Source: Patescibacteria group bacterium (GTDB lineage Bacteria > Patescibacteriota > UBA1384 > XYA2-FULL-43-10 > 1-14-0-10-43-13). From it: a stretch of 64,000 nucleotides of DNA. Where the stretch lies: the NCBI GenBank assembly GCA_041649155.1, contig JBAZNP010000001.1, positions 673,183-737,182 of the forward strand, given 5' to 3'. The notes beneath the pieces are model-generated. The model made no database searches, was not told where the DNA came from, and worked only from the letters and a program-made list of their open reading frames with translations. This document shows, piece after piece, positions 5,218 through 55,847 of this stretch (position 1 is its first letter; each line of letters opens with the position of its first letter). Position numbers and translations under genes: made by a program.

Positions 5218-5235
5218 AACACAAAAGGATGTATT

Positions 5236-13363: not shown

Positions 13364-13388
13364 ATAAAAATTAACATATAATATAAAT

Positions 13389-22751: not shown

Positions 22752-22791
22752 GTTATGCTAAATATCGTCGATCGTGAATTTTCAGCATAAC
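22752..22791. repeat. hairpin repeat R3
   Basis: gttatgctaaatatcgtcgatcgtgaattttcagcataac has a perfect 8-bp inverted repeat around the conserved core. Starts 8 nt after the dus stop. Confidence 0.6.
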
Positions 22792-27606: not shown

Positions 27607-27646
27607 AAGGCGGAAAGAAGAGGGTAGAAAATGAAAAGGAGGGGAA

Positions 27647-29423: not shown

Positions 29424-29830
29424 AAAGTAGAAGGTGGATTGTAGAAAGTGGAGAGCGAGCATTCATTCAAACTGTAATTCATGATGTCGAAAAATCCCCG
29501 AGTCGATCCAATAGAAAAAGAGACGGCCAGTGGCGCGGGCCGTCTCTTTGTTGTCTTGGTGCCGAACCAAGAGTAGATGGGGCAGTGGAGTGCCCAACCA
29601 TCAAGATCATCTACTTGCGGTTTGTAAGTGCTATCATCATAGGCAACCTCCGGAAGGGTCCCCATAAAATAGCGGGTAGTTTTATTGTATACAAATATTT
29701 TATATGCGCAAGTGGACAACTTGAAAAAAGAGCATAAAAGTAGTATTATATGATTTGTTAAATTAATTATGTGGGAGTTGGGAGACGTTTGCACCACAAA
29801 CCGCTAAGTTAATAGCGGGCTAGGAAAAAA

Positions 29831-30622
29831 ATGACAGCGAAAAAAGTTGTAGAGATGGCCAACGAAGAAGTCATCGACGAGAAGAAAATTCTCAAAGAAG
29901 CAGAGGAAAGAGAAAAAGAGAGAAAAGCTGAGGAAGAAGTAGCAAAAGAAGAAGAAAAAAAGGCTGAAAAGGAAGAGAAGAAAGAAGAGAAGAAAAAAGT
30001 AGAGCAGAAGAAAAGAAAGCCTTTGCATGGTAAAAAATACAGGGAATTGGCCAAGCAGATTGAGAAAGACACGGAATATCCAATTGCAGAAGCGATTGAA
30101 TTAGCACTTAAGACTTCTCCTGTAAAATTTGACGCTACAATCGAAGCTCATTTTAAGATCAATCCTAAAGAAAAAAATATTCGAGGCATGATCACTCTTG
30201 CCGGCGGTCTTGTTAAAGAGAAGAAAGTGAAGGAAGTTACCGAAGGTAATGTTGACGAAGTGATCGCAGAGGTTAAGGCTGGTAAAGTTGATTTTGATGT
30301 GATGATCGCCGAACTAAAGGCCATGCCTAAACTAGCTCAGCTTGCAAAAGTACTAGGTCCTAAGGGCCTTATGCCTTCGCCAAAGGCTGGAACTGCTGTT
30401 GAAGATGTAGCTAAAGCAGTAGAAGAATTAAAGAGCGGCAAAGTTGAATACAGAGCAGATAAATTCAATATCGTTCATTTGGCACTAGGTAAAATATCTT
30501 TCGGTTCCGAAAGAGTTAAACAGAATTATGATGCAATTTTAAATGCTTTGCCATTTAAGAAGATTGAAACTATATTCTTGACTTCTACAATGGGTCCAAG
30601 CGTTAAGGTGGCCAGAAAGTAG
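29831..30622 (+). CDS. rplA: 50S ribosomal protein L1 with Lys/Glu-rich N-terminal extension
   Basis: ...[44 protein letters not shown]...[24 protein letters not shown] matches uL1. About 70 aa of extra charged N-terminal sequence. Confidence 0.9.
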
Positions 30623-30670
30623 AGGGTAGAAAGTGGAAGGGGAACATAGAAAGCTGAATTGTGCTAAAGG

Positions 30671-32244: not shown

Positions 32245-33480
32245 ATGGCATTTGAATTAATCAAAAAATTAGATAACGGAGTTCGGGTTGGAAAACTAAC
32301 AACGCCTCATGGAGAAATTGAGACGCCTTTTTTTATGCCGGTGGGCACAGTCGGTAGTGTTAAGGGTGTATCGCCAAATGAATTAAACGAATTGGGTGCT
32401 CAAATAGTTCTGTCTAATACTTATCATCTGTATTTGCGTCCAGGAGAAAAACTAATTAAAAAACTTGGTGGACTGCATCAGTTTATGAATTGGAATAGGC
32501 CAATACTTACCGACTCTGGCGGATACCAAGTCTTTTCTTTGGGAAAAGACAATTCTAAATTTCTAATTTCTAATGACAAATCAAATTACAAAACCCAAAT
32601 AACAAATGTCCAAACATCTTTGGTTAAAATTACTGAGGATGGGGTTGAATTTAAGTCGCATTTAGACGGAAGTAAGCATTTTTTTACTCCTGAGAAAGTA
32701 ATCCAAATTCAACTTGATTTAGGGGTGGATATCTTGATGCCGCTCGATGTTTGTCCCAGCGGGAAGGCAACTCGGGAGGAGATTGAAGAAGCTTGCAAGT
32801 TAACAATATCTTGGGCAAAGCGTTCCAGAAAATATTTTCTGGAACAAGTAGAAAGTAGAAAGCTGAAAGATAACAGGCCACTTCTTCACGGAATAGTCCA
32901 AGGGGGATTGTATGAAGATTTACGCAGATATTGCGCTAAAGAGCTTATTAACCTTGATTTTGATGGATACTCAGTCGGAGGGTTGGCAGTTGATTTTGAA
33001 ACTCGTGATATGTGGAAGACTGTAAAATTGATGGGAGAAATTCTTCCCGAAAACAAGCAGAGATATTTAATGGGGGTTGGAACTCCTGACGACATTATTA
33101 AAGCAACGAAATTAGGCATGGACATGTTTGATTGTGTTTTGCCGACAAGATTAGCTCGTCACGGATCGGTTTATGTTAAAAATTGTCATTCCCACAACAA
33201 CCTTTGTCATTCCCGCGAAGGCGGGAATCCAGAGCCTGGATCCCAGATCGAGTCTGGGATGACAGACCATTATAAACTTATCAATCTTTTAAATTCCAAA
33301 TACAAAGAGGACGGGGGAGTGATCGATGAAGAATGCGCCTGTCCGGCTTGTAAAGGGGGATTTAGCCGTGCTTACATTTCGCACCTTCTAAGATCCAAAG
33401 AAATATTGGGACTGCGTTTAGCAACACTGCATAATCTACATCAGTATTTAGAACTGATGAGGGAATTAAAAAGTGAATAA
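32245..33480 (+). CDS. tgt: queuine tRNA-ribosyltransferase carrying an in-frame palindromic-element insertion
   Basis: TPHGEIETPFFMPVGTVGSVKG, LTDSGGYQVFSL, and zinc site CACPACKGG...SHL. About 30 extra residues (KNCHSHNNLCHSREGGNPEPGSQIESGMTDH) sit where other TGTs are contiguous; these are encoded by element E6. TATAAT lies 11 nt upstream of the ATG. Confidence 0.9.
   Translation: MAFELIKKLDNGVRVGKLTTPHGEIETPFFMPVGTVGSVKGVSPNELNELGAQIVLSNTYHLYLRPGEKLIKKLGGLHQFMNWNRPILTDSGGYQVFSLGKDNSKFLISNDKSNYKTQITNVQTSLVKITEDGVEFKSHLDGSKHFFTPEKVIQIQLDLGVDILMPLDVCPSGKATREEIEEACKLTISWAKRSRKYFLEQVESRKLKDNRPLLHGIVQGGLYEDLRRYCAKELINLDFDGYSVGGLAVDFETRDMWKTVKLMGEILPENKQRYLMGVGTPDDIIKATKLGMDMFDCVLPTRLARHGSVYVKNCHSHNNLCHSREGGNPEPGSQIESGMTDHYKLINLLNSKYKEDGGVIDEECACPACKGGFSRAYISHLLRSKEILGLRLATLHNLHQYLELMRELKSE
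33185..33265. repeat. palindromic mini-element E6 inserted in-frame in tgt
   Basis: gtcattcccacaacaacctttgtcattcccgcgaaggcgggaatccagagcctggatcccagatcgagtctgggatgacag: same termini and the same second hairpin as E2. Confidence 0.7.
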
Positions 33481-33995: not shown

Positions 33996-34402
33996 CCAAT
34001 GTTCTTAAGGTGAGGGGATTCACAGCGAGAACCCAGTTACCTCAAGAAAATACATTACAATTTAGTGCGATAGTGTGCTGCATAATTCATTTCTTGGCCT
34101 CGTGCCAAGACGTAGGTTCCCCCTCCGCCTGCGGAATTATGTGGCACAGTATTGCACTTTTTTTAAACCTTTGGTTTAAAACCCAGCGTAGCTTTAGCGA
34201 AGTTGGGTAGATGCAATTGCATTTTGACAACTAAATATCCTTCAGAGCAAGTTGCGCTCCGTGCAACTAGTAGAAAGTGAAAGGCGGTAAGTAGAAAGTT
34301 TTACGCCCAGCTTGCTCTGAGGGAATAACACCCTCAAAAGGGCCGCCAAAACGGCGTTTAATTACGCCGCTTACGCGGCACTACATTTGGAGGGATCGTA
34401 GA

Positions 34403-35068
34403 ATGAGAACACTTGTAACTTTGGTCGTTATTATAACGACGCTGTTTCTTTTCTCGCCTAATTCCTACTGCGCCATTGGCGTTGTAGTGGAAGACGGTAA
34501 CGGACCTGTCGCACAGGGTCAGGAAGCTCAAACTAGTATTCAGGAATCTCCTCAAGATAGTGGTGAGCAGGTTGCACAAATGCCAGCTGAGGAACGGGTT
34601 GAAGAGATGGGGACCTTAGTTGACTCTCAAGTTTCGTGTGTCAATTCTGATATTTCGAAATTTAGAGAAGCTCGAGCTAATCTGGCTCGAAGGAATGAGA
34701 GTGTAGCAGTCCACGTTCTTGAACGGAAGGTTGCCAGTCTTCAGTCGAGACTGAGAATATTTAAATCTATGAAGGTTGAAATAAAAGATCTTCGTGAGAG
34801 AATGTTCACTCTCGATGACAAGAAAGATATTGAGGCGCTCAAGAAGCTCGTTGATTCATGGACGAGCAAGTTCGTTGATGATGAGGAATTCACAAAAAAG
34901 CTCCAATCTTATGTCACAAAAGAAGACTTGGAGCAGCAGTTGTCTTCTTATGCCACTAAAACAGAAGTGAATCACATCGGAAATCGAGCGAGAAATTCTT
35001 ATGTGCTTTCATGGTTAGCAATTGTGGGAGTGATTCTTCCTCCGATTTACAAGAAAGTGCGTGGGTAG
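34403..35068 (+). CDS. hypothetical secreted/membrane protein with coiled-coil region
   Basis: Signal-like N-terminus MRTLVTLVVIITTLFLFSPNSYCA, central heptad-like charged region, C-terminal TM YVLSWLAIVGVILPPIY. Confidence 0.45.
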   Translation: MRTLVTLVVIITTLFLFSPNSYCAIGVVVEDGNGPVAQGQEAQTSIQESPQDSGEQVAQMPAEERVEEMGTLVDSQVSCVNSDISKFREARANLARRNESVAVHVLERKVASLQSRLRIFKSMKVEIKDLRERMFTLDDKKDIEALKKLVDSWTSKFVDDEEFTKKLQSYVTKEDLEQQLSSYATKTEVNHIGNRARNSYVLSWLAIVGVILPPIYKKVRG

Positions 35069-35115
35069 ATAAAAAATAAGAATTAAGATAGTTATTGCGA
35101 CGTTGTCGCAAGAGT

Positions 35116-35148
35116 CGGGGCGGCCCATATGGGCCGCCCTCTTTGTGT
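35116..35148 (+). terminator. hairpin terminator/attenuator
   Basis: ggggcggcccatatgggccgcccc-like 9-bp GC stem followed by tctttgtg (weak U-tract). Confidence 0.45.
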
Positions 35149-35217
35149 CCAATAAACTAAACTGTTGTGCAAATAGTTGATTTGTTTTATTATAAATATA
35201 TACAAGCTAGGAGGGAG

Positions 35218-38200
35218 ATGGTCGAATCGGGACAACAGCCACCACAAGAACTCGAAGGATTACGAGGTGATCTTGTTAATTTAAAGCACGAAGAAATTTC
35301 TAGTGAAGAAGATGAAATTTTGGCGGAAATTTCCAAGGCTAGACAAGAGATCGAAAATAATCCTGAAAAATTTGAGGAAATTTTGGCGTCTTTAGATGCT
35401 GATGCACTTCTTTTAAAAAGGATTTTAGAAGAAAAAAAGAAGTTTTGGGGACTTGGTGAAAAAATATCAAATATTACTGTTGATAAAATACAAAATGAAA
35501 AATGGAAAAAAGTACTAAAAATCGGCGCTAAACTTGGCGGGGGAATCATTGCATCAAGGTTGATATCAATAGGTGTTAAGAGTGCTTTTAACGTTTCTAA
35601 TCCGGTAACTGGAGCAATCTCCGGCGCTGCTATGGGGGGGTTCTGGGGCTATGTCAGGGGGAAAGACAAGACTGAATCGGCAAACGCATGGATGAAAGAG
35701 CTGAATATTGAAGAGCTGGAAACTGAAACTGTTGATGAATATTCTAACGAAGATTTAGGAAAAGTTATTGGTATTTTAAAAAATGCAATTGAAGATGGTA
35801 AAAATGGAAGGATGAGAGGCAATGCTGTTTCTAAAATTAATCTAGCTAGGAAGTATCGAGTAGCAAACAAAGAGCTTGTAAGGCGTACTAATGAGATAGA
35901 ACAGGATGAAAGTGGTTCAGTAATCGATCGAATCGATGAATTGAGCCAGGACGCAGAGGTTGAGGGAAAAGCCATATCGGAGTTATCTGGTAGGGAGCAT
36001 GAAGAACTTTATAAAATTCTCACTGAGCGTAATAAATATACGGTTGTTAAAGAAGGAATCAAAGGAGCTCTTGTCGGTGCTGGAGTTGGCTATGTGGCAA
36101 ACTGGGCTATGGATAAGATTTTTCACGTTGATGGTAATTCAGCTAAAGATGCAGCGTTGGAAGCAAAGAAGGAATCAATTAGACAAGCACATGATGCTAA
36201 AATTGATCAATTTGGGAATAATGATCTTCATAGCTTTAATACAGATCAAACTACCCACTTGCAATTAGTTGAAACAAAGGGAGACCTGCATGGGTTTAAT
36301 GACACTGAACTATCAAGCTTTACAGAGTCAGTAAATAAATCCGGTAATGTCTGGGAATTAATAAGGGATAGCCATTCCGATCTTCATAACATTGATTTAC
36401 AGGCTCCAATTGATGGAGAAACGGGCAAAAACATCGGTCAATTCATACTTGAGCATAAGGAAGCATTTTCTAACCTCGATCCGAATATACAAAGAGAAAT
36501 GTTGTCATTTCCAAGCTTAGCAGAAGATATTTTTAAAGCAGCAACTGAAAATTCATCAGCATCTGCGAGCGCAATTTCGGGTAACGCATTAGGGACTTTG
36601 GGTTTGGCTGCAATTGGCAGTGGTGGCATTTATGCTCTCGCGGCTAAAAAAGAAAAAGTGGCTAATGAAAAAATCGAAGCTTACGAGCCTAGACAACAAT
36701 CAGCATCTGGTGGAGGTGATTCTGGTCCTGACGGGACTCCATCTCCTGATGCTGGTGGAACTAGTGAGCAGAAGCCTCGAATTGTAGCGCCTAAAGGCAG
36801 ATTTGACGACAGTAATCTTGGAGAAGGCGGGCTGGCAGAAAACAACGGAGTTAATCCGGTCGGACTGGTTGAAAGCAAACCTGTTGATGTTGAAAAATAC
36901 AATCCGACCAAAGAAGATTACAAAAATGCAGAAGAGTTTTGGAAAATAAATGCGGGCAAAAAAGAAGTTAAAGAACATCTGGACGAATGGTTGTCTATAT
37001 TTATCAATCAAGGCAAATTCAATCTTAGAATTAACGGTGATGAAATTAGCGAAGTCGAAGCTTTAGAAGTTGCTGCATATAAGATTATGATTTTCGAAAA
37101 AGGTTGTGGAATTGGTGAAATTAAGATCGAAAGAAATAATGGTGTGTATTCTGCAGAGGCTGAGATCGTCGCTTTAAATGGTGGTGCTTCTGAAAAACCA
37201 GAATTGTCGCCTCAAGCTGCCGGAGTTGCAAGCGAGGGAGTAAACGCTGAAGCGGAAGACTATGGAAATAAAGAATGGATTTCTCGTGAAGCAGGAGTTG
37301 TTTTGCATGGCGCTCATGGATCAATAGCTGTCAATGCTGGCGATGTAGTGACGGAAAAATTAGGCAATCGTTTTACTATACGTGAATTATATGTCGATGA
37401 AAATCAAGATAATATTAAGATTGTTTGGGAAGATGGAAGTGATAATGTAAACACATCCGATAAATGGTATGAGTTTTTTTGGGAGGCAAAGCAAAGAGAA
37501 GAAGTGGGAGGAGGCACTGGCTTGAGTAACGAAGGCGAAGATGAGCCGGAAGTTTTTGTCCCAAGAAAATTAAATCCTGATAGGGCAGAGGGTTTAATTA
37601 AATCAGCTTCTGAAAATAACACAAATTTAAATATTCCAGAACTTGGTTTACAGAAATTTAATGTTAATAATAGTGATCAAGTTGTTTTGCTTGGCGATTT
37701 AGGAGATAATCTTGACTATTTAAAACAAGACATAGACTTTGGGTTTGTGCGGATAAATGAAATACAGGGAGAGTTAAGGGAAAAGGGTGTACAGACACCG
37801 GATTATAAGTTTTCTATAGAAAATGGTGAAAATTTCATTGAGTCTTATCTTGAGCCATTGAATGTGTTTATGGAAAAAATTTACAATCATTTGCCTCATA
37901 ATAAAGTTGAATTACCGCCAAATATTGAAAGCCAGGATTTAAGTGAAGCAATTGAGCGATTTGAAAGCGGATTCGAGAAGGTTAAAGCAAAATTAGAATT
38001 TTTTGGAGAATCGGCCAAAATTGAAAAGGTTCAAAATTTTTTAAGTCTTGCAAGAGCAATTAGGGATAATGATATCCAAAAGATTAATCCAAAATCAATT
38101 TCAAATGTGATTATGCAAACGTGGCATCCTTATAACAGCAACAAAGAGACTAATTGGATATATAAAAATGCCGAGGTTCTTAACCAACTATTGAAGGAAA

Positions 38201-38712
38201 AACTAAAAGGCTTTGATTACGAGATCATAGATGAAGAAGATTTAATTGGACATGAATTTATTCCATCAATTTGTAGGAGTATTGCATTGGAAGTTCAAAA
38301 TAAAGAGAATAAAGGCAAGATAATAGCGTTAAAGGGAGATAAAATAACAGGGGCAGGCCCTGGGGCATTAATATTCAAAGGAAAATTAGAGTATCCTGCC
38401 TTAACTGTTCTTGGGGTTGATGGTTTCAAGATAGATTTGGGCAAAGGAAAAGAGATATCTTTAGACTTAAATTCTGTTTACCGGATTAAAGACGGAGATA
38501 AGGAAGAATTCATTAAGTTTCATTGGCTGCGCGAAATTCATGGTGAGTATTTAGTAAACCTAGAAGTATCTGATTATGGTGTGCCCTTAAGTAAAGAGGG
38601 ATTAATTAGATTTATTAACAGGTATTCGATTGAGAAGATAGAAGGAGAAGTCGATCTAGGTAAGACCGAGAAAGCATATGCCAATCAATTACTTGAGGAA
38701 TTTCGTAAATAA
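35218..38712 (+). CDS. large hypothetical protein (1164 aa from the ATG at 35218) with three glycine-zipper-like amphipathic/TM segments
   Basis: RBS gagggag then ATG. Segments GGGIIASRLISIGVKSAFNVSNPVTGAISGAAMGGFWGYV, GIKGALVGAGVGYVANWAM and GNALGTLGLAAIGSGGIYALAA. A Gly/Ser/Pro-rich linker. No recognisable enzymatic motif. Confidence 0.5.
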   Translation: MVESGQQPPQELEGLRGDLVNLKHEEISSEEDEILAEISKARQEIENNPEKFEEILASLDADALLLKRILEEKKKFWGLGEKISNITVDKIQNEKWKKVLKIGAKLGGGIIASRLISIGVKSAFNVSNPVTGAISGAAMGGFWGYVRGKDKTESANAWMKELNIEELETETVDEYSNEDLGKVIGILKNAIEDGKNGRMRGNAVSKINLARKYRVANKELVRRTNEIEQDESGSVIDRIDELSQDAEVEGKAISELSGREHEELYKILTERNKYTVVKEGIKGALVGAGVGYVANWAMDKIFHVDGNSAKDAALEAKKESIRQAHDAKIDQFGNNDLHSFNTDQTTHLQLVETKGDLHGFNDTELSSFTESVNKSGNVWELIRDSHSDLHNIDLQAPIDGETGKNIGQFILEHKEAFSNLDPNIQREMLSFPSLAEDIFKAATENSSASASAISGNALGTLGLAAIGSGGIYALAAKKEKVANEKIEAYEPRQQSASGGGDSGPDGTPSPDAGGTSEQKPRIVAPKGRFDDSNLGEGGLAENNGVNPVGLVESKPVDVEKYNPTKEDYKNAEEFWKINAGKKEVKEHLDEWLSIFINQGKFNLRINGDEISEVEALEVAAYKIMIFEKGCGIGEIKIERNNGVYSAEAEIVALNGGASEKPELSPQAAGVASEGVNAEAEDYGNKEWISREAGVVLHGAHGSIAVNAGDVVTEKLGNRFTIRELYVDENQDNIKIVWEDGSDNVNTSDKWYEFFWEAKQREEVGGGTGLSNEGEDEPEVFVPRKLNPDRAEGLIKSASENNTNLNIPELGLQKFNVNNSDQVVLLGDLGDNLDYLKQDIDFGFVRINEIQGELREKGVQTPDYKFSIENGENFIESYLEPLNVFMEKIYNHLPHNKVELPPNIESQDLSEAIERFESGFEKVKAKLEFFGESAKIEKVQNFLSLARAIRDNDIQKINPKSISNVIMQTWHPYNSNKETNWIYKNAEVLNQLLKEKLKGFDYEIIDEEDLIGHEFIPSICRSIALEVQNKENKGKIIALKGDKITGAGPGALIFKGKLEYPALTVLGVDGFKIDLGKGKEISLDLNSVYRIKDGDKEEFIKFHWLREIHGEYLVNLEVSDYGVPLSKEGLIRFINRYSIEKIEGEVDLGKTEKAYANQLLEEFRK

Positions 38713-38745
38713 TTACATTAAGATAAATAAAGTCGGAGGGGAAAA

Positions 38746-39096
38746 ATGAATAACGATGATATGAACAAAGCGGACAATATTGAGGAAACTAATGATATAA
38801 TATTGCTGTATCAGAAAAAAATCATGGAAGAACTAGGGCTTGATAAGCTTTCCGAAAAAGAAAAAGAGGAAGCTGAAGCAAAAATTGCCAACCTTGTTAA
38901 TAACAGGGTGGTGAATATTATTTTGGCGTATTTACCGGAAGAGAAAGCCGAAGAATTTAAAGTTTTGATTGAGCAAGAAAAACTGGATGAAATAATTAAA
39001 TTTTTAAAAACAACAGTGCCTGATATTGAAGTTAAAATTGCAAATGATCTAATGCTGTTAAGAAAAGAATTAATAAGCAAATTGGCGAAAAAATAA
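38746..39096 (+). CDS. hypothetical protein (116 aa, K/E-rich)
   Basis: ORF with RBS ggagggg. Stop overlaps the next start (ATAATG). Confidence 0.4.
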   Translation: MNNDDMNKADNIEETNDIILLYQKKIMEELGLDKLSEKEKEEAEAKIANLVNNRVVNIILAYLPEEKAEEFKVLIEQEKLDEIIKFLKTTVPDIEVKIANDLMLLRKELISKLAKK

Positions 39097-40886
39097 TGTT
39101 ACAAAATACGGAAACAAAATCTAAGTCAGGATTACTGATGGACGCATCTGCTCATTTTAGTGAATCAGGAACTTCTGATAACTTTTTGGAGCTTCAAAAG
39201 GCTCTTAGCGCTGCTTCTGAGGCGGATAAAAATAAACTACGTGCAAGATATGCAGGTAAAGAAGGTTCTGCGGTCGAAGCGTCTCAAGAAAAAGGTATTG
39301 AGACCAGTGAGCAGGAAAAATTTGATGAATTGATGGAGGCTGTGAATAAGTTTGAGGAATTGGCCAAAGAGACTAAGAACATTGAAAAAGAACTTCAGGA
39401 AGCCGAAAGGGCTCATGATGAACATTATAGTAGCTATGCTGGGAAGATTACTTTGGCTGATCAAAATAGAGAGAGGGGATTGGTTACACTTAGAGCTGAA
39501 GTCGGACAAAAGCTCGAAGAAATGATTGTATTAAAGGGTGATATTCTAGACAAATTATCAGATATTAAATCTCATGAACTGAGGGCGAAAACATATGAGC
39601 GATTTGAAAGAAAGAAACCTGATGAAGTAGGAATGTCCAGTGAAGTAAAGTTGGAAACAAAATCCGACAAACATACAGATGATTTAAAGCATCGAACACT
39701 TAATCATAAGGCTAGGGAAATAGTTAAGTCTAATCTTGAAAAAATAGCAAAAAAGAAAACAGAAGCGGAAAAAATTGTCGTAGAAGTGGCCCCTGAAAAT
39801 GTTGAGCCTTCTGTACAGGAAGAAACCGCTGTCGCAAATGATTTGAAAGAAGAAGAAATTAGAAATAATTCAGAAGATCATCTTGCGCCTGGGATTCAAA
39901 TTGGCCGAGAAGAGGAGAGTGAAACACCTAAACCAGAAGAAGTTCAGACTAAGTCTCCAAAGGATATTATTGAACAAAAAGCGGTTATTGATATTCCTGA
40001 ACAAAAACCCCAGCCAGTTGCAGAAAATAAATCTGAAATTAAAGACAAACCATCCGAACCTCCGGTTGAAATCATGGAAATTGGACCAGATGGCGATCCT
40101 GTTAGCGTTACAGATAATGAAGGAGACTTTAGGGAAGACGAGATAACTTTTGTTGATGGTTCGGCTCAGCAGAACATTCCACAATCAAAAGTGGGGGAAA
40201 GTGAAAAGCAAAAAGTAGATTCTTCAGAATTTATCGATAAAATCAGAGAAAAACAATCCGAAATTGCAGAAAGAATGGGACTGGAACTTAAGAAACCAGT
40301 TGCCGAACCGATAAGGAAAATTGACGACTTTTTGCCGCCAACATCCAGAATTGAACAGGCAGCGGAAACAATAGAGCAAGATTTAAATAAACCAATCGCA
40401 GCTGCAAAAGCAGAACCAATTATTGATGAGAAGACTGTGAGTTCTATTCCTGTTATCCCCGAGAAGTCGGGGATCCAAGATAGTGATAGATTAGTAGATT
40501 CCCGCCTACGCGGGAATGACAATGTGGAGGGCGGGAATGACAATGCGAAAATGGCTGAATCGGACGATCAAATATTAACTCAAAATATTCAAACAGCAGA
40601 GCCCGTTGTCCCTGAGCAGAAAATCGAACCGGTTCAGCCGGTTACGGAAGAAGTGGGTAATAATGATGCAGGCAATATGATAGATATCAAGCCGGCAATC
40701 GAGGCAAAAGAAATTCAATTAGAGCAGCCTTTGCCAGAGCAAAAGAGGGGATTCTTCGGGAGAATTTTTGGCGGGAATAACGCTGATAGGCATGGTGCTG
40801 AAGTGATAGCTGGAAAGGGTGATGAATTAACCGCTGACCACATACATCAAATATTGGGTGCTAATGAAGAGAAAGAAGCGGCATAG
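39096..40886 (+). CDS. hypothetical charged/low-complexity protein (596 aa) with an in-frame palindromic-element insertion
   Basis: Coiled-coil-like E/K-rich sequence. Element E7 encodes ...IPEKSGIQDSDRLVDSRLRGNDNVEGGNDNAKM. Confidence 0.4.
   Translation: MLQNTETKSKSGLLMDASAHFSESGTSDNFLELQKALSAASEADKNKLRARYAGKEGSAVEASQEKGIETSEQEKFDELMEAVNKFEELAKETKNIEKELQEAERAHDEHYSSYAGKITLADQNRERGLVTLRAEVGQKLEEMIVLKGDILDKLSDIKSHELRAKTYERFERKKPDEVGMSSEVKLETKSDKHTDDLKHRTLNHKAREIVKSNLEKIAKKKTEAEKIVVEVAPENVEPSVQEETAVANDLKEEEIRNNSEDHLAPGIQIGREEESETPKPEEVQTKSPKDIIEQKAVIDIPEQKPQPVAENKSEIKDKPSEPPVEIMEIGPDGDPVSVTDNEGDFREDEITFVDGSAQQNIPQSKVGESEKQKVDSSEFIDKIREKQSEIAERMGLELKKPVAEPIRKIDDFLPPTSRIEQAAETIEQDLNKPIAAAKAEPIIDEKTVSSIPVIPEKSGIQDSDRLVDSRLRGNDNVEGGNDNAKMAESDDQILTQNIQTAEPVVPEQKIEPVQPVTEEVGNNDAGNMIDIKPAIEAKEIQLEQPLPEQKRGFFGRIFGGNNADRHGAEVIAGKGDELTADHIHQILGANEEKEAA
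40455..40545. repeat. palindromic mini-element E7, in-frame inside the CDS
   Basis: atccccgagaagtcggggatc ... attcccgcctacgcgggaatgacaatgtggagggcgggaatgacaatg has the same arms as E6 (cccgcgaaggcgggaat). Confidence 0.6.
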
Positions 40887-40963
40887 AATCTTATTAACCT
40901 CACCTAACCCTGCCTACCGGCAGGCAGGCTCTCCTTGAAAAGGAGAGGGAGCAAAAAAACAAA

Positions 40964-43501
40964 ATGACAGACGATTATTATAATGGATATGAAAGTTCAA
41001 GTGGATCAAATTGGTGGATTTGGTTGGTTGTTTTTGTTGTCGCAATTATTCTGATTTATATTATTTATCAGAAGATAAGAAAGTCAGTATTACGAAAAAA
41101 CCAAATTAATTTGACTAAAGACTGGACAATGTACAAGGTTCTAGTGCCAAGAGAAAGGCATGCAGGAGAAGATGATCAACGCAAAAATTTTCAGGAAATG
41201 TTGTCAGTTATTGAACCTTTTTATGCAAACTTGAATGCAATGTTTGATAACACTGTCTCAAAAAGACTTCAGGGGCAGGATCATATTTCGCTGGAATTAA
41301 TTGCTAAAGATAATTTAATAAGTTTCTACATCGGTTGCTCCAAGAAAATATCTAATAGTATTTTAAAAAATCTCCATGCCCAATATCCTTATGCAGAAAT
41401 TACTGAAGATAAAAACTATTCAGTTTTTCCAAATAAGCCGTTAAAAATTGATATTGCCAATTTGGGGCTAATAAAAAGATATATTTTTCCCCTAAAAACA
41501 TACAAAACATTGGAAGAGGATCCCCTTAATGCTTTATCTAATTCACTATCGAAGTTGTCCGAGGATGAGCTGGCAGGGGTGCAATTTTTACTAAGGCCAA
41601 CCACAGGTGTCTGGAGAACGGCGGGAGAGAGGGCGGCGTTCAATATTCAGCACGGAAAATCCCGTGTTTCTCATTCAAACTCAGCTACAGTTAGAGCAGG
41701 GGAGGCATTTTTTAATTTTCTAGGTTCCGCGACGCAAACTGCGCAGGGAAAAGGGGAAGGCGAGCACTCCGAGCTATATGATCCAAAGAACCCAATGAAG
41801 TTAACTCCAATGCAGGAAAGTCAAATAAAGCTTTTAGGAGAAAAAGTCTCCAAGCTTGGATTTGAGTGTCAAATAAGAATTGTGAGTGTTGCTCCCACTA
41901 TGGAAAAAGCTCGCCAAAATACTAAAGAAATCGCTTCAATATTCAATCAATTTAATTCTCCTGACTCCAATGGGCTGAATATCAAATATCCAAAAAAGAG
42001 ATCAGAAGACATAGCGAACTATGTTTTCAGGCTTTTCGGTAGGGGACCGAGATTAATTTTAAATACTGAGGAGTTATCTTCCCTATATCATTTACCAAAT
42101 CGTTTTATTGAAACCCCAAATATTGCGTGGCTGTTAGCTAAAAAAGAGCCACCTCCATCAAATTTGCCAAAAGAAGGGACAATAATCGGAAACAGTGTAT
42201 TTAGGGGGAGTGAACTTCCAATTAAAATCAAAGAGTTAGATCGGCTGAGGCACGTTTATATGATAGGTAAAACCGGTGTTGGTAAAACCGTGCTTTTCGA
42301 AAATATGATCCTTCAGGATATAAAAGAAGGAAAGGGTGTCTGCTACCTTGATCCAAATGGAGATGCGGCAGAATACATTTTAAGCCGGATACCAAAAGAA
42401 AGAGCCGACGATGTAATTTACTTCAATCCAGCTGATATAGAGAGGCCAATGGGATTGAATTTGCTTGAATGGAAGACTCCTGAGCAGAGAGATTTCTTAG
42501 TTCAGGAAGCTATTCAAATATTTTATAAACTTTTTGATCCGGGGCAGACTGGAATTGTTGGACCGCAGTTTGAACACTGGATGAGAAATGCAGCCTTAAC
42601 TTTGATGGCTCATCCAGAAGGTGGAACCCTTATTGATATTCCAAGATTGTTTACTGACCCTGATTTTGAAAAGGACCGTGTGAAATATGTGCAAGATCCA
42701 GTAGTGAAAAACTTTTGGGAGAAGCAAATGGCTAAAACTGCTGATTTCCATAAGTCAGAAATGTTAAATTATTTCACTTCAAAATTTGGTCGCTTTATGA
42801 CCAATGATATGATGAGAAATATTTTGGGTCAGACTAAGTCATCATTTGACTTCAGGGATGTGATGGATAACAAGAAAATTCTGATCTGCAATTTATCAAA
42901 AGGATTAATAGGGGAGATCAACGCTTTTCTTCTGGGTATGATAATCGTATCCAAGATAGCGATCGGCGCTTTTTCCCGTCAGGATTTAACAGAAGAAGAG
43001 AGAATTCCCTTTTATCTTTATGTTGATGAATTCCAGAACTTTATTACAGATGTTTTTGCAACTATTCTTTCTGAGTCGAGAAAATACAAATTATCTTTAA
43101 ATATCACAAACCAGTACATTGCGCAGCTGGATGAAAAAATACGTGATGCTGTTATTGGTAATGCCGGCACTTTGGTGTCATTCAGAATTGGTGCGGCGGA
43201 TGCGGACTTTTTGGTTAAAGAATTTGATCCTCTTAAGCCTGACGATATGACCAATATTGATAAGTATAATTTTTATATAAAAATGCTGATTGATGGCGCA
43301 CCGACAAAGCCGTTTAATGGTCAGAGTTTGGCTCCCGATCCCAATGCAAATAGTCAGCTTAGCGCAGCTATAAAAGAATTATCAAGACTGAAATATGGGA
43401 AGCCAAAAGATCAAGTTAATAATGAAATATTAGATAGAACTAAAGTTGACTCTATAGATTTACCAGGGATTAGTTCTACGGATGCAGTGAAAACAGCATA
43501 G
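40964..43501 (+). CDS. TraG/VirD4/TraD-like (type IV coupling protein-like) P-loop ATPase with N-terminal TM and a 400-aa N-terminal domain
   Basis: TM WWIWLVVFVVAIILIYIIY. Walker A IGKTGVGKT (near 42264). Walker B/TraG-D_C-like YLYVDEFQNF. Arginine-finger/Q motif SESRKYKLSLNITNQYIAQL. Ends with IGNAGTLVSFRIGAADADFL. Confidence 0.6.
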   Translation: MTDDYYNGYESSSGSNWWIWLVVFVVAIILIYIIYQKIRKSVLRKNQINLTKDWTMYKVLVPRERHAGEDDQRKNFQEMLSVIEPFYANLNAMFDNTVSKRLQGQDHISLELIAKDNLISFYIGCSKKISNSILKNLHAQYPYAEITEDKNYSVFPNKPLKIDIANLGLIKRYIFPLKTYKTLEEDPLNALSNSLSKLSEDELAGVQFLLRPTTGVWRTAGERAAFNIQHGKSRVSHSNSATVRAGEAFFNFLGSATQTAQGKGEGEHSELYDPKNPMKLTPMQESQIKLLGEKVSKLGFECQIRIVSVAPTMEKARQNTKEIASIFNQFNSPDSNGLNIKYPKKRSEDIANYVFRLFGRGPRLILNTEELSSLYHLPNRFIETPNIAWLLAKKEPPPSNLPKEGTIIGNSVFRGSELPIKIKELDRLRHVYMIGKTGVGKTVLFENMILQDIKEGKGVCYLDPNGDAAEYILSRIPKERADDVIYFNPADIERPMGLNLLEWKTPEQRDFLVQEAIQIFYKLFDPGQTGIVGPQFEHWMRNAALTLMAHPEGGTLIDIPRLFTDPDFEKDRVKYVQDPVVKNFWEKQMAKTADFHKSEMLNYFTSKFGRFMTNDMMRNILGQTKSSFDFRDVMDNKKILICNLSKGLIGEINAFLLGMIIVSKIAIGAFSRQDLTEEERIPFYLYVDEFQNFITDVFATILSESRKYKLSLNITNQYIAQLDEKIRDAVIGNAGTLVSFRIGAADADFLVKEFDPLKPDDMTNIDKYNFYIKMLIDGAPTKPFNGQSLAPDPNANSQLSAAIKELSRLKYGKPKDQVNNEILDRTKVDSIDLPGISSTDAVKTA

Positions 43502-44178: not shown

Positions 44179-45213
44179 ATGACAACAATAAAGAATTTTA
44201 GTCCCTACAAAATTGTTAAAAAGGCAATGGAAAGCTTAAAACCAAATGAGGTTAAAGTTATTGCAGGTCGTTTTGGTATTGATGAAGACAGAAAGACTCT
44301 TTCCTCTATTGGTAAAGAATTAAATCTTTCGAGAGAAAGAATTCGTCAAATTGAAAAAGAGGGACTTAAAAAGCTTGCATCTAAAATCGTCGATCGTAAA
44401 AATGAATATCTTGAATTAATCATTCAATCATTTAAGCAAAGCGGTGGAATTGCCAAGCATGAAAATATCGCAAATAAGTTTTTGGAAGAGAGTTTGAAAT
44501 CAAATAAAAATGAATTTAATGCTTTGCATTTGATTTTCTTTCTCATGCCGGAACTTAAGAAGATCGATAAGACTAGAGAACTGGAAGCAAGCTGGGTCAT
44601 TGCTTCTTTATCTAAAGATGAAGTTCTTGGAATTATTAATAATTGGGTTGATCATCTACAAAAAGTGAAAAAACCAACTACGATAGATATTCTCGTAAAA
44701 GAAAATCCTAGTCATAATAAATATGAAATGACCTTTTTGTCCGAATTACCTTACATCAGTAAAAAGCTGGTTAAAACAGAAAATGACTTTATTGGATTAG
44801 CATCTTGGCCTGAAGTAAATCCTAAAAATGTGCGCGATAAAATTTACTATATCCTAAAAAAAGAAGGTAAACCTGTTCACTTTGAAATAATTGCAAAGAA
44901 GATTAATGAAGAAAAATTTTCAAAGAAAAAAGTTGTAAAAGCCACTGTTCACAATGAATTAATTGCTGACGACAGATTTATTCTAGTAGGCAGAGGAATT
45001 TATGCACTTAGAGAATGGGGATACGAGCCCGGAACAGTGAGAGATATTATAAAAAATATTTTAGATATTCATAATCATTCTATGAAGGTTGATGAAATTG
45101 TTTCAGAAGTTCTAAAACAAAGAACTGTTAAGAAAAACACTATTTTGATTAACTTGCAAACAAAGTCGGATTTTAAAAAAGCCGGCAAAGATAGCTACGA
45201 ACTCGCTAAGTAA
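44179..45213 (+). CDS. sigma-70 region-4-like HTH protein with 270-aa C-terminal extension (not a canonical sigma factor)
   Basis: VKVIAGRFGIDEDRKTLSSIGKELNLSRERIRQIEKEGLKKLASKI matches the sigma70 region 4.2 HTH. No region 2. Start overlaps the upstream stop. Confidence 0.5.
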   Translation: MTTIKNFSPYKIVKKAMESLKPNEVKVIAGRFGIDEDRKTLSSIGKELNLSRERIRQIEKEGLKKLASKIVDRKNEYLELIIQSFKQSGGIAKHENIANKFLEESLKSNKNEFNALHLIFFLMPELKKIDKTRELEASWVIASLSKDEVLGIINNWVDHLQKVKKPTTIDILVKENPSHNKYEMTFLSELPYISKKLVKTENDFIGLASWPEVNPKNVRDKIYYILKKEGKPVHFEIIAKKINEEKFSKKKVVKATVHNELIADDRFILVGRGIYALREWGYEPGTVRDIIKNILDIHNHSMKVDEIVSEVLKQRTVKKNTILINLQTKSDFKKAGKDSYELAK

Positions 45214-45306
45214 TTAGCAAAAACATTGAGAATGATGTAAAATAGTGTTAGAAAGTAAACGCGATATAATTTGGCGTTTACTTGTAAAACAAAATGGGGG
45301 AGCTCT

Positions 45307-48300
45307 ATGCAGATTTTTTTATTTCTAATTTTAGTTGTAATTGTGTTAGCCGCAGGCTATCTTATTTTGATTTTAACTAAAATCAAAAATGCAAAAGCCA
45401 AGCAGGAGTGGATGGAGTCGCAAGAATATACGACCTTGCGAATTGATGTACCTAAAAATAATGACAAAAAACCACTTTCTGCCGAACAAATGTTTGCTTC
45501 CATTCATGGAATATATTCTGAAAATTCTCTTTTTCAGAACCATTTGAGTTTTGAAATAGTTGCCCGAGACAAATTCATTCAGTTTTATGTGTATGTGCCG
45601 AAACATATTAAGGACTTTGTTGAGGGCCAAATCTATGCTCAGTATCCAGCAGTCGAAATTCATGAAGTTCCTGATTATACGGAGTCTGTAAAGCCGACAG
45701 ATGGAATTAATTTTGCCGTTTGCGACTTAAACATGACAAAACCGGATGTCTATCCGGTGAAATTTTTTACTGATTTTGAGGTTGACCCATTGAGTGGTAT
45801 TACTTCTGTTATGACTAAGCTTAATCAGGGTGAAGAAGTATGGTTTCAATTGGTCATGAAGCCGGTAGGGGATGAGTGGCAAGAAAAAGGCAATAGCATC
45901 GTTTCGGCAGTCAGGGCCGGACGTAAACCAGGTGGGGTGGGCATTTCTAGCACTATATTAGGTCATTTAAAACAATTTTCAAAGGCTTTTATTCAGCAGG
46001 CGATTCAGCCTGGAGTCGAGACAGAAGAAAGCAAAAGCGAGGTTAAACTTCCAGCTACTGTGGAGGAGGCTCTTAAAGGGATTGAACAAAAAATAGTTAA
46101 ATTAGGGTTTGAGACAAAAATTCGTATTCTTTCAATCTCGAACGATCCCATTTCAGCTAAAGTGAGATGCCAAAGTGTCTCAGCTGCTTTTAAACAATTC
46201 AATACAACAAATTTAAATGGTTTTAAGGTCGGGGAAATAGTCACGAACAATTATGATACATGGAAAGACTTTTCTCAAAGGTCATTTGAAGATGCGGGTA
46301 ATATTCTTAATATCGCCGAGCTTGCTTCTATTTATCATCTTCCTCATGAAACTGTAGAAACACCAAACATTGTTTGGTCGGGCGCAAAAAAGGGTGAACC
46401 ACCGGCAAATTTGCCTTTCAGAGAAAATATATCCGAAGAGGTTTTGACCGTTATTGGCATGACTAATTTTAGAAGCACTTTTCATGAATTCGGTATAAAA
46501 AATGATGACAGAAGAAGGCATATCTATATTGTGGGTAAGTCTGGTACTGGTAAATCAACTCTGATTGAAAATATGGCTGTTGATGATGTAGTTAGGGGCA
46601 AAGGCGTAATAATTGTTGATCCTCATGGTGAATTGGCAGATAAAGTTATATCTTGTGTACCTGATTATCGAATTAATGATGTTATTGTTTTTGATCCTGC
46701 TGATCGAGCATACCCGATTGGTTTTAACCTGTTGGAACACGTAGAGGATGATTTTAAGGGCATGGTTGCTTCTGGATTTGTAGGGATATTTAAAAAAATC
46801 TTCGGTGATTCATGGGGCCCCCGTTTGGAGCATATCTTAAGAAATACTGTTTTGGCATTGCTTGATTTTACAGAATCGACAATGCTTGATATTCCACGAA
46901 TGCTTACGGATAACCGTTTTAGAGATCGTGTAGTTGAAAAAGTTAAGGATCCGGTAATCAGGGACTTCTGGGTAAATGAATTTGCTCAATATGATAGTAA
47001 GTTCAGAACTGAAGCAGTGTCTCCGATTTTGAATAAAGTCGGTCAATTTTTGGCGACTGCTACTATTCGAAATATTGTTGGCCAGTCAAAATCAAAAATC
47101 AATATCAGGGAAATTATGGATCAGAAGAAGATATTGATTGTAAATCTTTCCCGTGGAAAAATTGGCGAAGACAATTCCGCTTTGCTCGGTGCTATGATGA
47201 TTACCAAAATTCAGCTTGCAGCAATGAGTCGTGCTGATGTTACGGCAGATAAGAGAGCAGATTGTTTCTTATATGTTGACGAGTTTCAGAACTTTGCTAC
47301 AGAATCTTTTGCAACCATTTTGTCAGAAGCGAGAAAATATAATCTATGTTTGACGATGGCTAACCAGTACATTGAGCAGATGTCTGAAGAGGTAAGAAGT
47401 GCTGTGTTCGGTAATGCCGGCACTATTGCGGCATTTAGGGTTGGCGGAGCTGACGCTGATTTTCTGGTTAAGGAATTTGAGCCTGTATTTGATGCAAACG
47501 ATATGGTTAATCTTGATAAATATAACATCTATATTAAACTTTTGATTGACGGTATTTCTTCGCCGGCTTTTTCGGCTAAGACTTTACCGCCGGTTCAAAA
47601 ACTTACCGGTAATGTTGAGAAAATTGTCAATCAATCGCACGAAAAATACTCTTCTTTGCGTTCAGTGATAGAAGAAAAGATTATCAATAGGGACAAGGAA
47701 GAAGAAGCTCTTCTTAAAGCTGAAGCTGAAGCTTTTAAACAAGGTGGATTAGAAGCTTTATTAGTAAAAAAAGCTGATCATTCTACGGTTCATGTTGCGT
47801 CGCCGGAAAAGAAATCCGATGCGTTTGGTGAAGCGCCAAAGGAGACGGGGGATAGTCTTAAAAGAGAAAGTGTGCCAGAAAGAGTAACGTCAGAAAATAC
47901 AGAAAATACTGAGGACTATATCAAGAAGGAATCCAAGCCGCGTGTTTTTAGATATCAAAATATAATTGGCGATAAAATCTATAAAGAGCAAACCGCGAGA
48001 GGGGGAGTAAAGTGGTATGTTGGAGAGGAAATCGATCTTGCTAAGCAGAAAGAGCTTGGTGTGGAAGTTTTGAAAGATGGCGAAAAAATGATTGAATTGG
48101 CAAACAAGGTCAAAAAATCTGCCGTTAACGTAAGCCATGAGAGAACGGAGGATCCAAAAGATACAGATTTAAACAAAACCGATTCTACTATTAAAGATCG
48201 CGAAACAGGATCAAAGGAAACTAAAAAAGTAGAAGATGAAAAATCTTTAACACCTTCTAAAGAACCTGATGTGATCATTCAGGAAGAAAAAGGCGAGAAA

Positions 48301-48393
48301 GCAAAAGAAACTACTACCAAAGATAATAAAACCAATATTGTTAATCATGCCGATGCGAAACACCTAACAGAAGGTGAAGAAACAGTTTTGTAA
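45307..48393 (+). CDS. second TraG/VirD4/TraD-like ATPase (paralog) with C-terminal 330-aa charged extension
   Basis: RBS gggggag then ATG. TM IFLFLILVVIVLAAGYLILIL. Walker A VGKSGTGKS (near 46535). FLYVDEFQNF. SEARKYNLCLTMANQYIEQM. FGNAGTIAAFRVGGADADFL. N-domain shares YAQYP(A/Y)(V/A)EI with the first copy. Confidence 0.6.
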   Translation: MQIFLFLILVVIVLAAGYLILILTKIKNAKAKQEWMESQEYTTLRIDVPKNNDKKPLSAEQMFASIHGIYSENSLFQNHLSFEIVARDKFIQFYVYVPKHIKDFVEGQIYAQYPAVEIHEVPDYTESVKPTDGINFAVCDLNMTKPDVYPVKFFTDFEVDPLSGITSVMTKLNQGEEVWFQLVMKPVGDEWQEKGNSIVSAVRAGRKPGGVGISSTILGHLKQFSKAFIQQAIQPGVETEESKSEVKLPATVEEALKGIEQKIVKLGFETKIRILSISNDPISAKVRCQSVSAAFKQFNTTNLNGFKVGEIVTNNYDTWKDFSQRSFEDAGNILNIAELASIYHLPHETVETPNIVWSGAKKGEPPANLPFRENISEEVLTVIGMTNFRSTFHEFGIKNDDRRRHIYIVGKSGTGKSTLIENMAVDDVVRGKGVIIVDPHGELADKVISCVPDYRINDVIVFDPADRAYPIGFNLLEHVEDDFKGMVASGFVGIFKKIFGDSWGPRLEHILRNTVLALLDFTESTMLDIPRMLTDNRFRDRVVEKVKDPVIRDFWVNEFAQYDSKFRTEAVSPILNKVGQFLATATIRNIVGQSKSKINIREIMDQKKILIVNLSRGKIGEDNSALLGAMMITKIQLAAMSRADVTADKRADCFLYVDEFQNFATESFATILSEARKYNLCLTMANQYIEQMSEEVRSAVFGNAGTIAAFRVGGADADFLVKEFEPVFDANDMVNLDKYNIYIKLLIDGISSPAFSAKTLPPVQKLTGNVEKIVNQSHEKYSSLRSVIEEKIINRDKEEEALLKAEAEAFKQGGLEALLVKKADHSTVHVASPEKKSDAFGEAPKETGDSLKRESVPERVTSENTENTEDYIKKESKPRVFRYQNIIGDKIYKEQTARGGVKWYVGEEIDLAKQKELGVEVLKDGEKMIELANKVKKSAVNVSHERTEDPKDTDLNKTDSTIKDRETGSKETKKVEDEKSLTPSKEPDVIIQEEKGEKAKETTTKDNKTNIVNHADAKHLTEGEETVL

Positions 48394-48617: not shown

Positions 48618-48704
48618 TCATTTCGACCCCGTGCCCGTGAAACGGTTGGAGAAATCTTAATTAAGATGGGTTGAAAGATCCCTCCACGTTGGTTGGGATG
48701 ACAA
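48618..48704. repeat. palindromic mini-element E8
   Basis: tgtcatttcgaccccgtgcccgtgaaacggttgg...gatccctccacgttggttgggatgacaa. The terminal part is the reverse complement of E9. Confidence 0.6.
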
Positions 48705-55483: not shown

Positions 55484-55533
55484 TTCGATTCCCTCTTTTA
55501 TTAATTAGGCGCGACTGTTCAATACTCTCCTGT

Positions 55534-55559
55534 GTCATCCCGACCAACGTGGAGGGATC
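55534..55559. repeat. short palindromic element E9
   Basis: gtcatcccgaccaacgtggagggatc is the reverse complement of the E8 terminal half. Lies about 50 nt upstream of the rmuC start on the - strand, followed by the GC palindrome cctgcctgccggcaggcagg, which also occurs at 40905-40930. Confidence 0.55.
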
Positions 55560-55847
55560 TGTTAACAGTTAATTCTTTTTATTTGTAAGATTTCCCTGCC
55601 TGCCGGCAGGCAGGTCCGCCCCTCAGACAAGGCCGAGGAGTCGAAATGACAGCGGCGAGTGAGCATTGCAATTAAATATAGCATTATTGTAGCATAAATA
55701 TTTAACCGAACAAATGCTGAACATAACAACACAGATTTCTTACACAGATCGAACACTGATACAGGGTGGTCAATAGGACGTTTTACTAATAAAATCGCTG
55801 GCAATATGCCAGTGATTTTATTAGTCTTTCTATTCCCTTTTCTTTCT

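Follow-up and report, generated by a model that had tools for sequence, protein, structure and literature searches.

How does a palindromic repeat come to be read as protein in three genes of one short genome segment? The question is raised by a stretch of 64,000 nucleotides (nt), hereafter the window, from a Patescibacteria group bacterium (GenBank assembly GCA_041649155.1, contig JBAZNP010000001.1, positions 673,183 to 737,182 of the forward strand), in which a charged protein of 596 amino acids (aa), a DUF167 protein and a queuine tRNA-ribosyltransferase (TGT) each carry an in-frame copy of the same hairpin-forming repeat. The copy in the gene for the 596-aa protein is referred to as E7. 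A preliminary description of this DNA had counted three insertions, all in frame, of one repeat family in the 64 kb, and this count stands. Most probably the three genic copies are what remains, in translated form, of a short hairpin repeat that is non-autonomous and of the kind known as CGTC-tagged repetitive extragenic palindromes (REPs) or Ssn-related motifs (SRMs), and represent the survivorship of rare in-frame insertions.

The repeat unit has a simple anatomy, namely a (C/T)GTC(AT) tag, a stem of 8-9 bp that is closed by AT, a loop of 4-5 nt and an AT-C or ATC tail, and units are usually paired as inverted doublets. At least 13 units were found in the window, distributed over 10 sites, seven of them intergenic and three genic. 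Ten units carry GTCAT or a one-base variant of it, all strict units possess the AT-C end, and two units continue with CAG or TAC, like the CYRG tail of the Neisseria Transformation Sequence (NTS). The commonest hairpin of the window is GTCATYCCAGACTYGATCTGGRATC (25 nt). For a covariation analysis, 31 distinct units from the window and all fetched loci were chosen by tag and loop only, which keeps the test of the stem non-circular; 96.8% of the stem cells pair, two-sided changes occur in six of the eight pairs, and none of 500 shuffles was as good. Folding of the genic regions as single-stranded DNA is far better than that of shuffles (z-scores of -3.7, -4.9 and -2.2). The units are a real, structured, multi-copy family with the hairpin under selection. 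An Rfam search at the gathering threshold and a tRNA scan of the window revealed no matches.

E7 and its host gene are composed as follows:
39096-40886, plus strand: open reading frame (ORF) of the 596-aa charged protein, lineage-restricted and without a Pfam domain
40452-40475, plus strand: left hairpin unit of E7, GTTATCCCCGAGAAGTCGGGGATC, with an 8-bp stem and a GAAG loop
40476-40496, plus strand: spacer CAAGATAGTGATAGATTAGTA, encoding the peptide QDSDRLV, common to the ortholog at locus L004 and not to the other doublets of the window
40494-40521, minus strand: right hairpin unit TGTCATTCCCGCGTAGGCGGGAATCTAC, fitting the published SRM expression, and the NTS consensus with three mismatches
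40522-40545, plus strand: partial duplicate of the tag end of the unit, GGCGGGAATGACAAT, encoding VEGGNDN, with a period of 21 nt

Two inverted hairpin units with a 21-nt spacer between them and a partial duplicate therefore make up E7, and the uninterrupted 596-aa ORF runs through all of it (40452-40545). The preliminary description had correctly recognised this in-frame copy, though its start was set 3 nt too late and the quoted peptide extends to 40553, a little past the end that was given. The translation reads IPEKSGIQ...GGNDNAKM, with IPEKSGIQDSDRLVDSRLRGNDNVEGGNDNAKM occupying aa 454-486 between SSIPV and AESDD. Read on the minus strand, the right hairpin is GTCATTCCCGCGTAGGCGGGAATC with the tag TGTCAT, and its opposite strand encodes DSRLRGND. 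The left tag has changed from GTC to GTT in the window by a synonymous substitution, and GTC (GTCAT) is retained in the L004 ortholog. A module of 48 nt, consisting of a half unit and a full unit, recurs in inverted orientation in the TGT element (40497-40544 versus 33182-33229, 81% complementary). Judged by its sequence, the E7 segment is clearly the repeat, which may have been gained once or repeatedly.

The 596-aa protein matches the NCBI hypothetical protein WC536_03765 exactly, apart from the start site, and belongs to a tiny family, for which a profile search of 1.84 billion proteins yielded nine representatives. A metagenome scan with the family profile gave 600 pattern matches, none of which was confirmed, and a metagenome scan with an E7-specific DNA pattern gave zero matches. 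E7 is present in the window protein, in the L004 ortholog (P0003) and in the fragment P0161, and all three alleles keep the E7 peptide; P0002, P0004 and P0005 lack it, as do five further members, namely P0160-P0165 except P0161. In the AlphaFold model, which is based on a shallow alignment, residues 411-578 show a pLDDT below 50 and no secondary structure; E7 lies inside this segment, which is rich in indels.

Together with its upstream genes, the 596-aa gene forms a hypervariable block of about 6.8 kb (window about 34181-40952) in comparison with locus L001 of a close relative. The 596-aa proteins of the two genomes are 55% identical at the amino acid level, the products of the next gene downstream 95.7%, and the 1181-aa and 116-aa genes of the window's block are replaced in L001 by a 743-aa gene. 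Downstream of the 596-aa gene lies a TraD/VirD4-like ATPase gene; paralogous genes for coupling ATPases of this type were located at 40964-43501 and 45271-48393, sharing a 213-nt stretch with 74% identity, and a gene with sigma-70-region-4 and HARE-HTH similarity stands between them, in an order that is conserved in the relative.

The two other genic copies lie in genes with well-known domains:
32245-33480, plus strand: TGT ORF (Pfam E 4.4e-135)
33182-33267, plus strand: in-frame doublet in the TGT gene, a half unit and two tail-to-tail units, encoding CHSHNNLCHSREGGNPEPGSQIESGMT
3988-4245, plus strand: DUF167 ORF (Pfam E 1.1e-19)
4051-4083, plus strand: in-frame insert of 33 nt in the DUF167 gene, with one hairpin unit at 4056-4082, 5 nt before the unit and 1 nt after it

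For the TGT copy, the best comparison is provided by a relative represented by the loci L001 and L122, which come from one sample (ERZ27250635) and are taken together here as one close relative, R1, whose 845-aa neighbour protein shares 95.7% identity with that of the window. In the TGT gene, R1 shows about 87% nucleotide identity to the window up to the element, which it lacks, and the alignment resumes beyond it; the window has a net gain of 66 nt. The element is absent from L001 and L002 as well as from every TGT in the Protein Data Bank (PDB). At its site, between chain residues 281 and 285, the window TGT has 33 residues and the solved structures have three, and from this segment missing in the homologs the site is, by inference, a surface loop.

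Further length variation was seen in these enzymes. A second extra segment of the window TGT, KDNSKFLISNDKSNYKTQITNVQTSL (32545-32622, aa 101-126), is encoded by AT-rich, internally repetitive DNA and is absent from all solved TGTs; in a Daviesbacteria TGT (L115, 2510-3943), the same loop contains about 80 aa of inserted sequence, including a hairpin doublet. The L001 TGT (around 330-375) reveals a 45-nt in-frame insertion of its own beside the zinc-binding cysteine cluster, CPAC[QSQNHEKAAGTSASSNK]GYS, with no obvious hairpin unit.

In the DUF167 gene, the unit ATCATCCTCGGACTTGACCCGAGGATC at 4056-4082 encodes SSSDLTRGS. Calling this copy a half-element, as had been done before, was fair: together with its few flanking bases, the lone unit comes to 33 nt. 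Resolved into codons, the insert of the L122 gene is made up of CCTCT, the perfect unit GTCATCCTCGGGCTTGACCCGAGGATC and T, again 33 nt. The extra 11 aa are found in 3 of 18 aligned DUF167 homologs and are missing from the other 15, one of which is 74% identical. Three orthologs with 65-80% identity have kept the peptide LPLSSSxLTxGS, and it persists recognisably despite decay of the hairpin, which is perfect in L122 (R1); in the window the tag G and a stem pair are gone, and in L125 two stem pairs. The predicted model places the insert in the beta2-beta3 loop, between the strands at 16-20 and 34-39; it is otherwise confident, with pLDDT below 50 at residues 24-27. The identical DUF167 protein was recorded from four sources.

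Directly upstream of DUF167, a GTCATT anchor is found at the same place in three genomes (window 3894-3920, L122 about 5200-5260, L124 about 2370-2400), and the hairpin bodies behind it differ between the genomes. Different bodies behind one anchor suggest a replacement in situ. For P0007 and P0009, the longer N-termini that were called (MNEGEKSLI...) probably derive from a reading of this upstream repeat.

Relative to their homologs, the TGT and DUF167 copies are, on alignment, true insertions. Together with the counterparts of E7 described above, this means that alleles without the insertion exist for each of the three genes. All three copies appear to sit in tolerant places, namely a surface loop in DUF167, a segment that TGT homologs lack and a segment of the 596-aa protein that is predicted to be disordered.

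The preliminary description had left two options, that the element is selected to preserve the reading frame or that it is tolerated only when it does. The copies outside genes bear on this choice:
2355-2423, no strand assigned: intergenic doublet at site A, 67 nt from GTCAT to ATGAC, missing at the orthologous site of R1 (L122)
3894-3974, no strand assigned: intergenic doublet at site B, 79 nt, directly upstream of DUF167
5148-5216, no strand assigned: intergenic doublet at site D, 67 nt, upstream of ileS and nearly base-for-base conserved in R1
16514-16542, minus strand: single variant unit, intergenic, of the GTCATCCCGA...GGGATCT subfamily
48675-48704, minus strand: single variant unit, intergenic
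55530-55560, plus strand: single variant unit, intergenic
61630-61660, minus strand: single variant unit, intergenic

All three intergenic doublets have a length of 1 mod 3, and they leave open 1, 1 and 0 of the six frames. For 54 non-genic doublets from many genomes, with lengths of 56-119 nt, the three length classes modulo 3 hold 14, 21 and 19 members, and on average 1.35 frames are open. The genic copies, by comparison, add multiples of three bases and no stop codon, and the conserved domains downstream stay in frame. They do so in three different phases, GTT-ATC in the 596-aa gene, xTC-ATC in DUF167 and xxC-ATT in TGT, and the resulting peptides are unrelated. Copies in genes are also rare: only 3 of the 10 sites are genic in a window that is 90.5% coding according to a greedy ORF map (not a curated annotation), a depletion with a binomial P of 6.5e-6. 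Under the assumption of random insertion, the implied survival of genic relative to intergenic copies is (3/7)/(0.905/0.095), or about 5%, which roughly fits the combination of a one-in-three length requirement, a scarce open frame and a tolerant site. Over all loci, 17 of 241 units lie inside long open frames in a strict test, and part of these, in GC-rich DNA, are probably spurious.

Lengths, stops, phases, gene depletion, tolerant sites and hairpin decay together argue that the repeat is tolerated only when in frame and is not built to be read. It is therefore the second option that the survivorship evidence supports; the first, an element itself selected or built to preserve the frame, is not supported, in view of the indifferent doublet lengths, the mixed phases and the depletion in genes. 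No frameshifted, element-bearing versions of the host genes were seen in relatives.

The repeat is not a fixed component of these genomes. R1 lacks the TGT element, E7 and two intergenic doublets, and has the ileS doublet and the DUF167 unit in common with the window. The window gained, or R1 lost, the four copies that differ, and units come and go between close relatives. Where the window has a 58-nt spacer (45213-45271), L001 shows, around 12046-12246, about 200 nt of inserted DNA that is bounded by long terminal inverted repeats and encloses a hairpin unit; this looks like a composite element resembling a MITE (miniature inverted-repeat transposable element).

Entry into genes has recurred elsewhere. 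The Daviesbacteria TGT (L115; Pfam E 2.6e-122) displays, independently, a doublet in the loop that follows FSLG as well as a unit in a different loop, and in-frame units are found in a DprA (L021) and in a TPR membrane protein (L110) of other genomes. A hairpin scan with GTCATYCCAGACTYGATCTGGRATC, covering one genome per species, yielded at least 117 stretches (loci L005-L121). Among the matches listed, exact copies of this hairpin occur in more than 10 phyla, including lineages of the Candidate Phyla Radiation (CPR), Dependentiae, Bacteroidota, Alpha- and Gammaproteobacteria, Sulfurimonas, Dehalococcoidia, Nitrospirota and others.

An enzyme that could act on such hairpins is encoded beside them in several of these genomes. 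With an Ssn-like profile built from 120 homologs, nine strong Ssn-like ORFs were identified in the 117 fetched stretches, and eight of them have a unit at a distance of 8-43 nt, often on either side. All four ORFs that were scanned matched the Pfam GIY-YIG domain (E 1e-15 to 1e-18), and hairpin-flanked Ssn-like genes are present in L011, L027, L048, L121 and others. The ORF of L011 (4389-4673) has 94 aa and carries Y6, Y17 and E64, positions that correspond to the residues mutated in SsnA (PMC11893778). A PDB search with the flanking nucleases revealed only a weak match to UPF0213, and NCBIfam gave nothing useful. The size of 94 aa, the GIY-YIG match and Y6/Y17/E64 support a tentative assignment of the flanking nucleases to the Ssn family (cd10448). 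The L011 locus is part of the genome CAYIJI01, where a DUF167 ortholog bearing the hairpin insert is found too, so that this lineage does possess the pair of hairpin and nuclease. The occurrence of one hairpin in many phyla points to a horizontal spread of the hairpin together with the nuclease gene.

From this, the following course of events can be proposed. A small GIY-YIG nuclease of the Ssn type, encoded elsewhere in the genome, would recognise the hairpin in single-stranded DNA and nick it at the tag. Units would be spread or maintained through single-stranded hairpins and Ssn activity, hairpin and nuclease travelling together. Insertions could fall anywhere, and those that break a frame would be purged by selection, so that rare in-frame, stop-free insertions in tolerant loops would persist as an extra peptide. 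The hairpins of these genic copies would then decay, and at the protein level the copies would be retained or would drift.

Several points weigh against this account. A copying mechanism has been demonstrated nowhere for this class of repeats (PMC3733652, PMC11893778), and no convincing target-site duplication was found at four pairs of filled and empty sites. Motif and profile searches detected no GIY-YIG or Ssn gene in the 64-kb window, no Ssn-like gene of the 798,787-bp source contig was found among the best 120 of at least 7965 homologs, and the Ssn partner in the source genome is therefore a presumed one. The counts given above rest on 10 sites in 64 kb and on the greedy ORF map. A further objection comes from E7 itself, which is common to the window and to L004 (and P0161) and missing from the closer relative R1; over the start of the neighbouring gene, L004 is 71% and R1 86% identical to the window. 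The E7 DNA is 74% identical between the window and L004, and the flanks only 43-47%, a conservation above the host gene that is not expected of a neutral relic. In both alleles E7 occupies the same codon and has the same left hairpin, spacer and right end. In L004 the middle of the right arm is replaced and an extra nested hairpin is present, and the right arm of the window is closer to the TGT copy (81% over 48 nt). Re-insertion at one site, gene conversion between copies or selection on the DNA may account for this conservation.

The last of these leads to the strongest alternative, which we nevertheless regard as unlikely: the genic copies would be held by selection on the DNA or RNA hairpin, serving as sites of Ssn cleavage or recombination or as barriers to transforming DNA. 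A parallel would be found in the NTS/dRS3 clusters near variable surface genes of Neisseria, with repeats lying in or beside fast-evolving genes, and the hypervariability of the 596-aa gene and its upstream neighbours, set against the well-conserved next gene, agrees with this. So does the excess identity of the E7 DNA over its flanks, with P0161 encoding the same peptide, and so does the near base-for-base conservation of the ileS doublet in R1. The Saccharibacteria are naturally competent (PMC10187176), and in Neisseria the Ssn/NTS pair modulates transformation (PMC11893778). However, a test for a recombination breakpoint at E7, comparing the window with L001, revealed no step in identity. 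The change of GTC to GTT in the left tag of E7 affects a position important for cleavage by SsnA, the DUF167 hairpin is decaying in two lineages that retain the peptide, and the closest relative has intact genes without E7 and without the TGT copy.

A more specific version of this idea, and to our minds a slightly less likely one, is that the genic units are Ssn recognition sites that determine, in a competent, ultra-small bacterium, which of the incoming or replicating single strands recombine, and so shape the rapid diversification of the 596-aa gene block beside the DNA-translocase genes. If this were true, the conservation of E7 above its host gene, across orthologs with about 40% identity, would be the footprint of selection at the DNA level.

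It is very improbable that the repeat acts as a coding module, favoured by selection for its added peptide and in frame by design, as was once suggested for the Rickettsia palindromic elements (RPEs). Three in-frame copies in 64 kb could be cited for this, as could the retention of LPLSSSxLTxGS in three DUF167 orthologs and of the E7 peptide in three alleles. Three phases, though, yield three unrelated peptides in unrelated host proteins, the canonical copies are not multiples of three and have nearly all frames closed, and the inserts, which close relatives do without, occupy loops of low confidence or disordered stretches. Least credible of all is the notion that we are dealing with ancestral gene sequence or with artefacts of assembly; metagenome-assembled genomes can indeed collapse or misjoin at repeats, and the 11 family members allow either polarity for E7, gain or loss, but these units are also found between genes and across many phyla, solved TGTs and most DUF167 homologs lack the inserts, the filled DUF167 and E7 alleles appear in independent assemblies (the DUF167 protein identically from four sources), and the flanks are collinear and in frame.

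Survivorship of rare in-frame insertions, the reading we prefer, is a known phenomenon in the Rickettsia RPEs and in intragenic CGTC REPs, and has not been described for Patescibacteria in the literature searched. The present data extend both the repeat class and its in-frame survival inside genes to this group, whose genomes are tiny and gene-dense and for which such DNA is costly. For annotation, this means that odd CPR peptides such as VIPEKSGIQ, DSRLRGND and HSREGGNP are to be read as marks of repeat insertion and not as domains, and that such inserts are to be expected in loops when CPR enzymes, here TGT, are aligned or their structures predicted. That one and the same 25-nt hairpin stands next to Ssn-like genes in many phyla supports the view that the two travel jointly. 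A role of the hairpin and Ssn in transformation is conceivable here, as speculation by analogy, and the Saccharibacteria, with the natural competence mentioned above, offer a setting in which Ssn and its motif could be tested in transformation.

Other repeated or conserved sequences of the window were noted besides the hairpin family. The long leader upstream of ileS (4843-5236) is conserved in the relative too, and a stem and a T-run close it right before the doublet; it could be a T-box-like leader, with no Rfam match at the gathering threshold. A 45-nt intergenic motif, GTTRTGSYAAATATCGTCGATCGTGARTTTTYAGCAYAA, occurs three times (13326-13370, 13954-13998 and 22752-22796) and has no Rfam match; two copies stand right after the stop codon of a plus-strand gene and the third about 60 nt after such a stop, and the outer arms GTTATGC and GCATAAC can pair. 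A purine-rich repeat resembling GTAGAAAGTRGAG is located at or near gene 3' ends (3851-3885, 27613-27639, 29429-29462 and 30614-30647).

Among the known systems, the closest is that of the Ssn nucleases, described in 2025 (PMC11893778) in a study that defines the NTS, CGTCATTCCCGCGMAVGCGGGAATCYRG, which holds the old dRS3 repeat, and also gives the degenerate SRM expression. That work deals with cleavage by Ssn and its effect on transformation, not with transposition; the Neisseria pair limits the integration of transforming DNA, and the tag of the motif as well as the cytosine or short tail after the palindrome matter for cleavage or binding by SsnA. In the window, the SRM expression finds three units versus 0.06 in shuffles, and the NTS consensus, with up to three mismatches allowed, finds two sites (33205-33232 in TGT with one mismatch and 40494-40521 in E7 with three) versus 0 in 100 shuffles. 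Chance similarity was rejected on the strength of these matches above shuffles and of the folding z-scores. Like the dRS3/NTS/SRM repeats of Neisseria, the units described here have a (C/T)GTCAT tag, a stem, a short loop and ATC, and are mostly intergenic and scattered, in inverted pairs or mosaics; like SRM and Ssn, the hairpin brackets a 94-aa GIY-YIG gene, in the order hairpin-ssn-hairpin, in related and unrelated genomes. They differ in that 3 of 10 sites are genic here, compared with 2% of the NTS in N. meningitidis (PMC11893778), in that the host belongs to the Patescibacteria, a group that this study, based on RefSeq representative genomes, does not name, and in that no partner gene is seen in the window.

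A broader resemblance exists to REPs, bacterial interspersed mosaic elements (BIMEs) and REP doublets forming hairpins (REPINs) with their REP-associated tyrosine transposase (RAYT), all sharing short tagged hairpins, inverted doublets, a mostly extragenic location and a dedicated single-domain enzyme for hairpins in single-stranded DNA. The enzyme found beside the hairpins elsewhere is, unlike RAYT, a GIY-YIG nuclease and not a tyrosine transposase of the IS200/IS605 type; a RAYT was neither sought nor seen here. A GTAG-type REP or REPIN was rejected because all units carry a (C/T)GTCAT tag and not GTAG. Bacterial MITEs, such as the Coxiella QMITE, ERIC and Correia elements, sometimes fuse in frame to ORFs (PMC10969869, PMC5896051), and the present repeat resembles them in being non-autonomous and in adding peptide segments through occasional in-frame fusions. 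A classical MITE was rejected as well, as neither terminal inverted repeats derived from an insertion sequence nor a target-site duplication at filled versus empty sites is evident, the ends being hairpin tags.

The CGTC-tagged REPs (Di Nocera et al. 2013, PMC3733652) have stems of 8-9 bp, loops of 4-5 nt and a 3-nt tail, form dimers, and are without a dedicated or adjacent transposase; intragenic dimers encode 20-30 aa. The units described here agree with Table 1 and the text of that paper in their CGTC-type tag at one end, stem, loop, tail and dimer organisation, and the intragenic dimers of 20-30 aa fit as well. They deviate in that half of them carry the tag TGTC and in that CPR/Patescibacteria are not among the hosts of that paper. 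In the pairs counted here, the tags are mostly outermost (57 against 11). The same paper equates the Rickettsia elements RPE-4 and RPE-6 with CGTC REPs. RPEs (Ogata et al. 2000) lie in frame in unrelated, apparently functional genes, according to PMC10969869 and PMC3733652, and our copies are like them in being in-frame palindromic inserts that add a loop-like peptide to unrelated genes, including those of tRNA-modification enzymes. In sequence, the relation holds at the class level only, through the equation just mentioned. RPE-1 is different, with its about 100-150 bp and large genic fraction, as against units of 24-27 nt and doublets of 58-92 nt that are mostly intergenic; it has one conserved peptide, where three phases are used here, and it belongs to another phylum. 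By its sequence features, then, the repeat of the window is to be placed in the class of CGTC-tagged REPs and dRS3/NTS/SRM elements, a class that includes Rickettsia RPE-4 and RPE-6.

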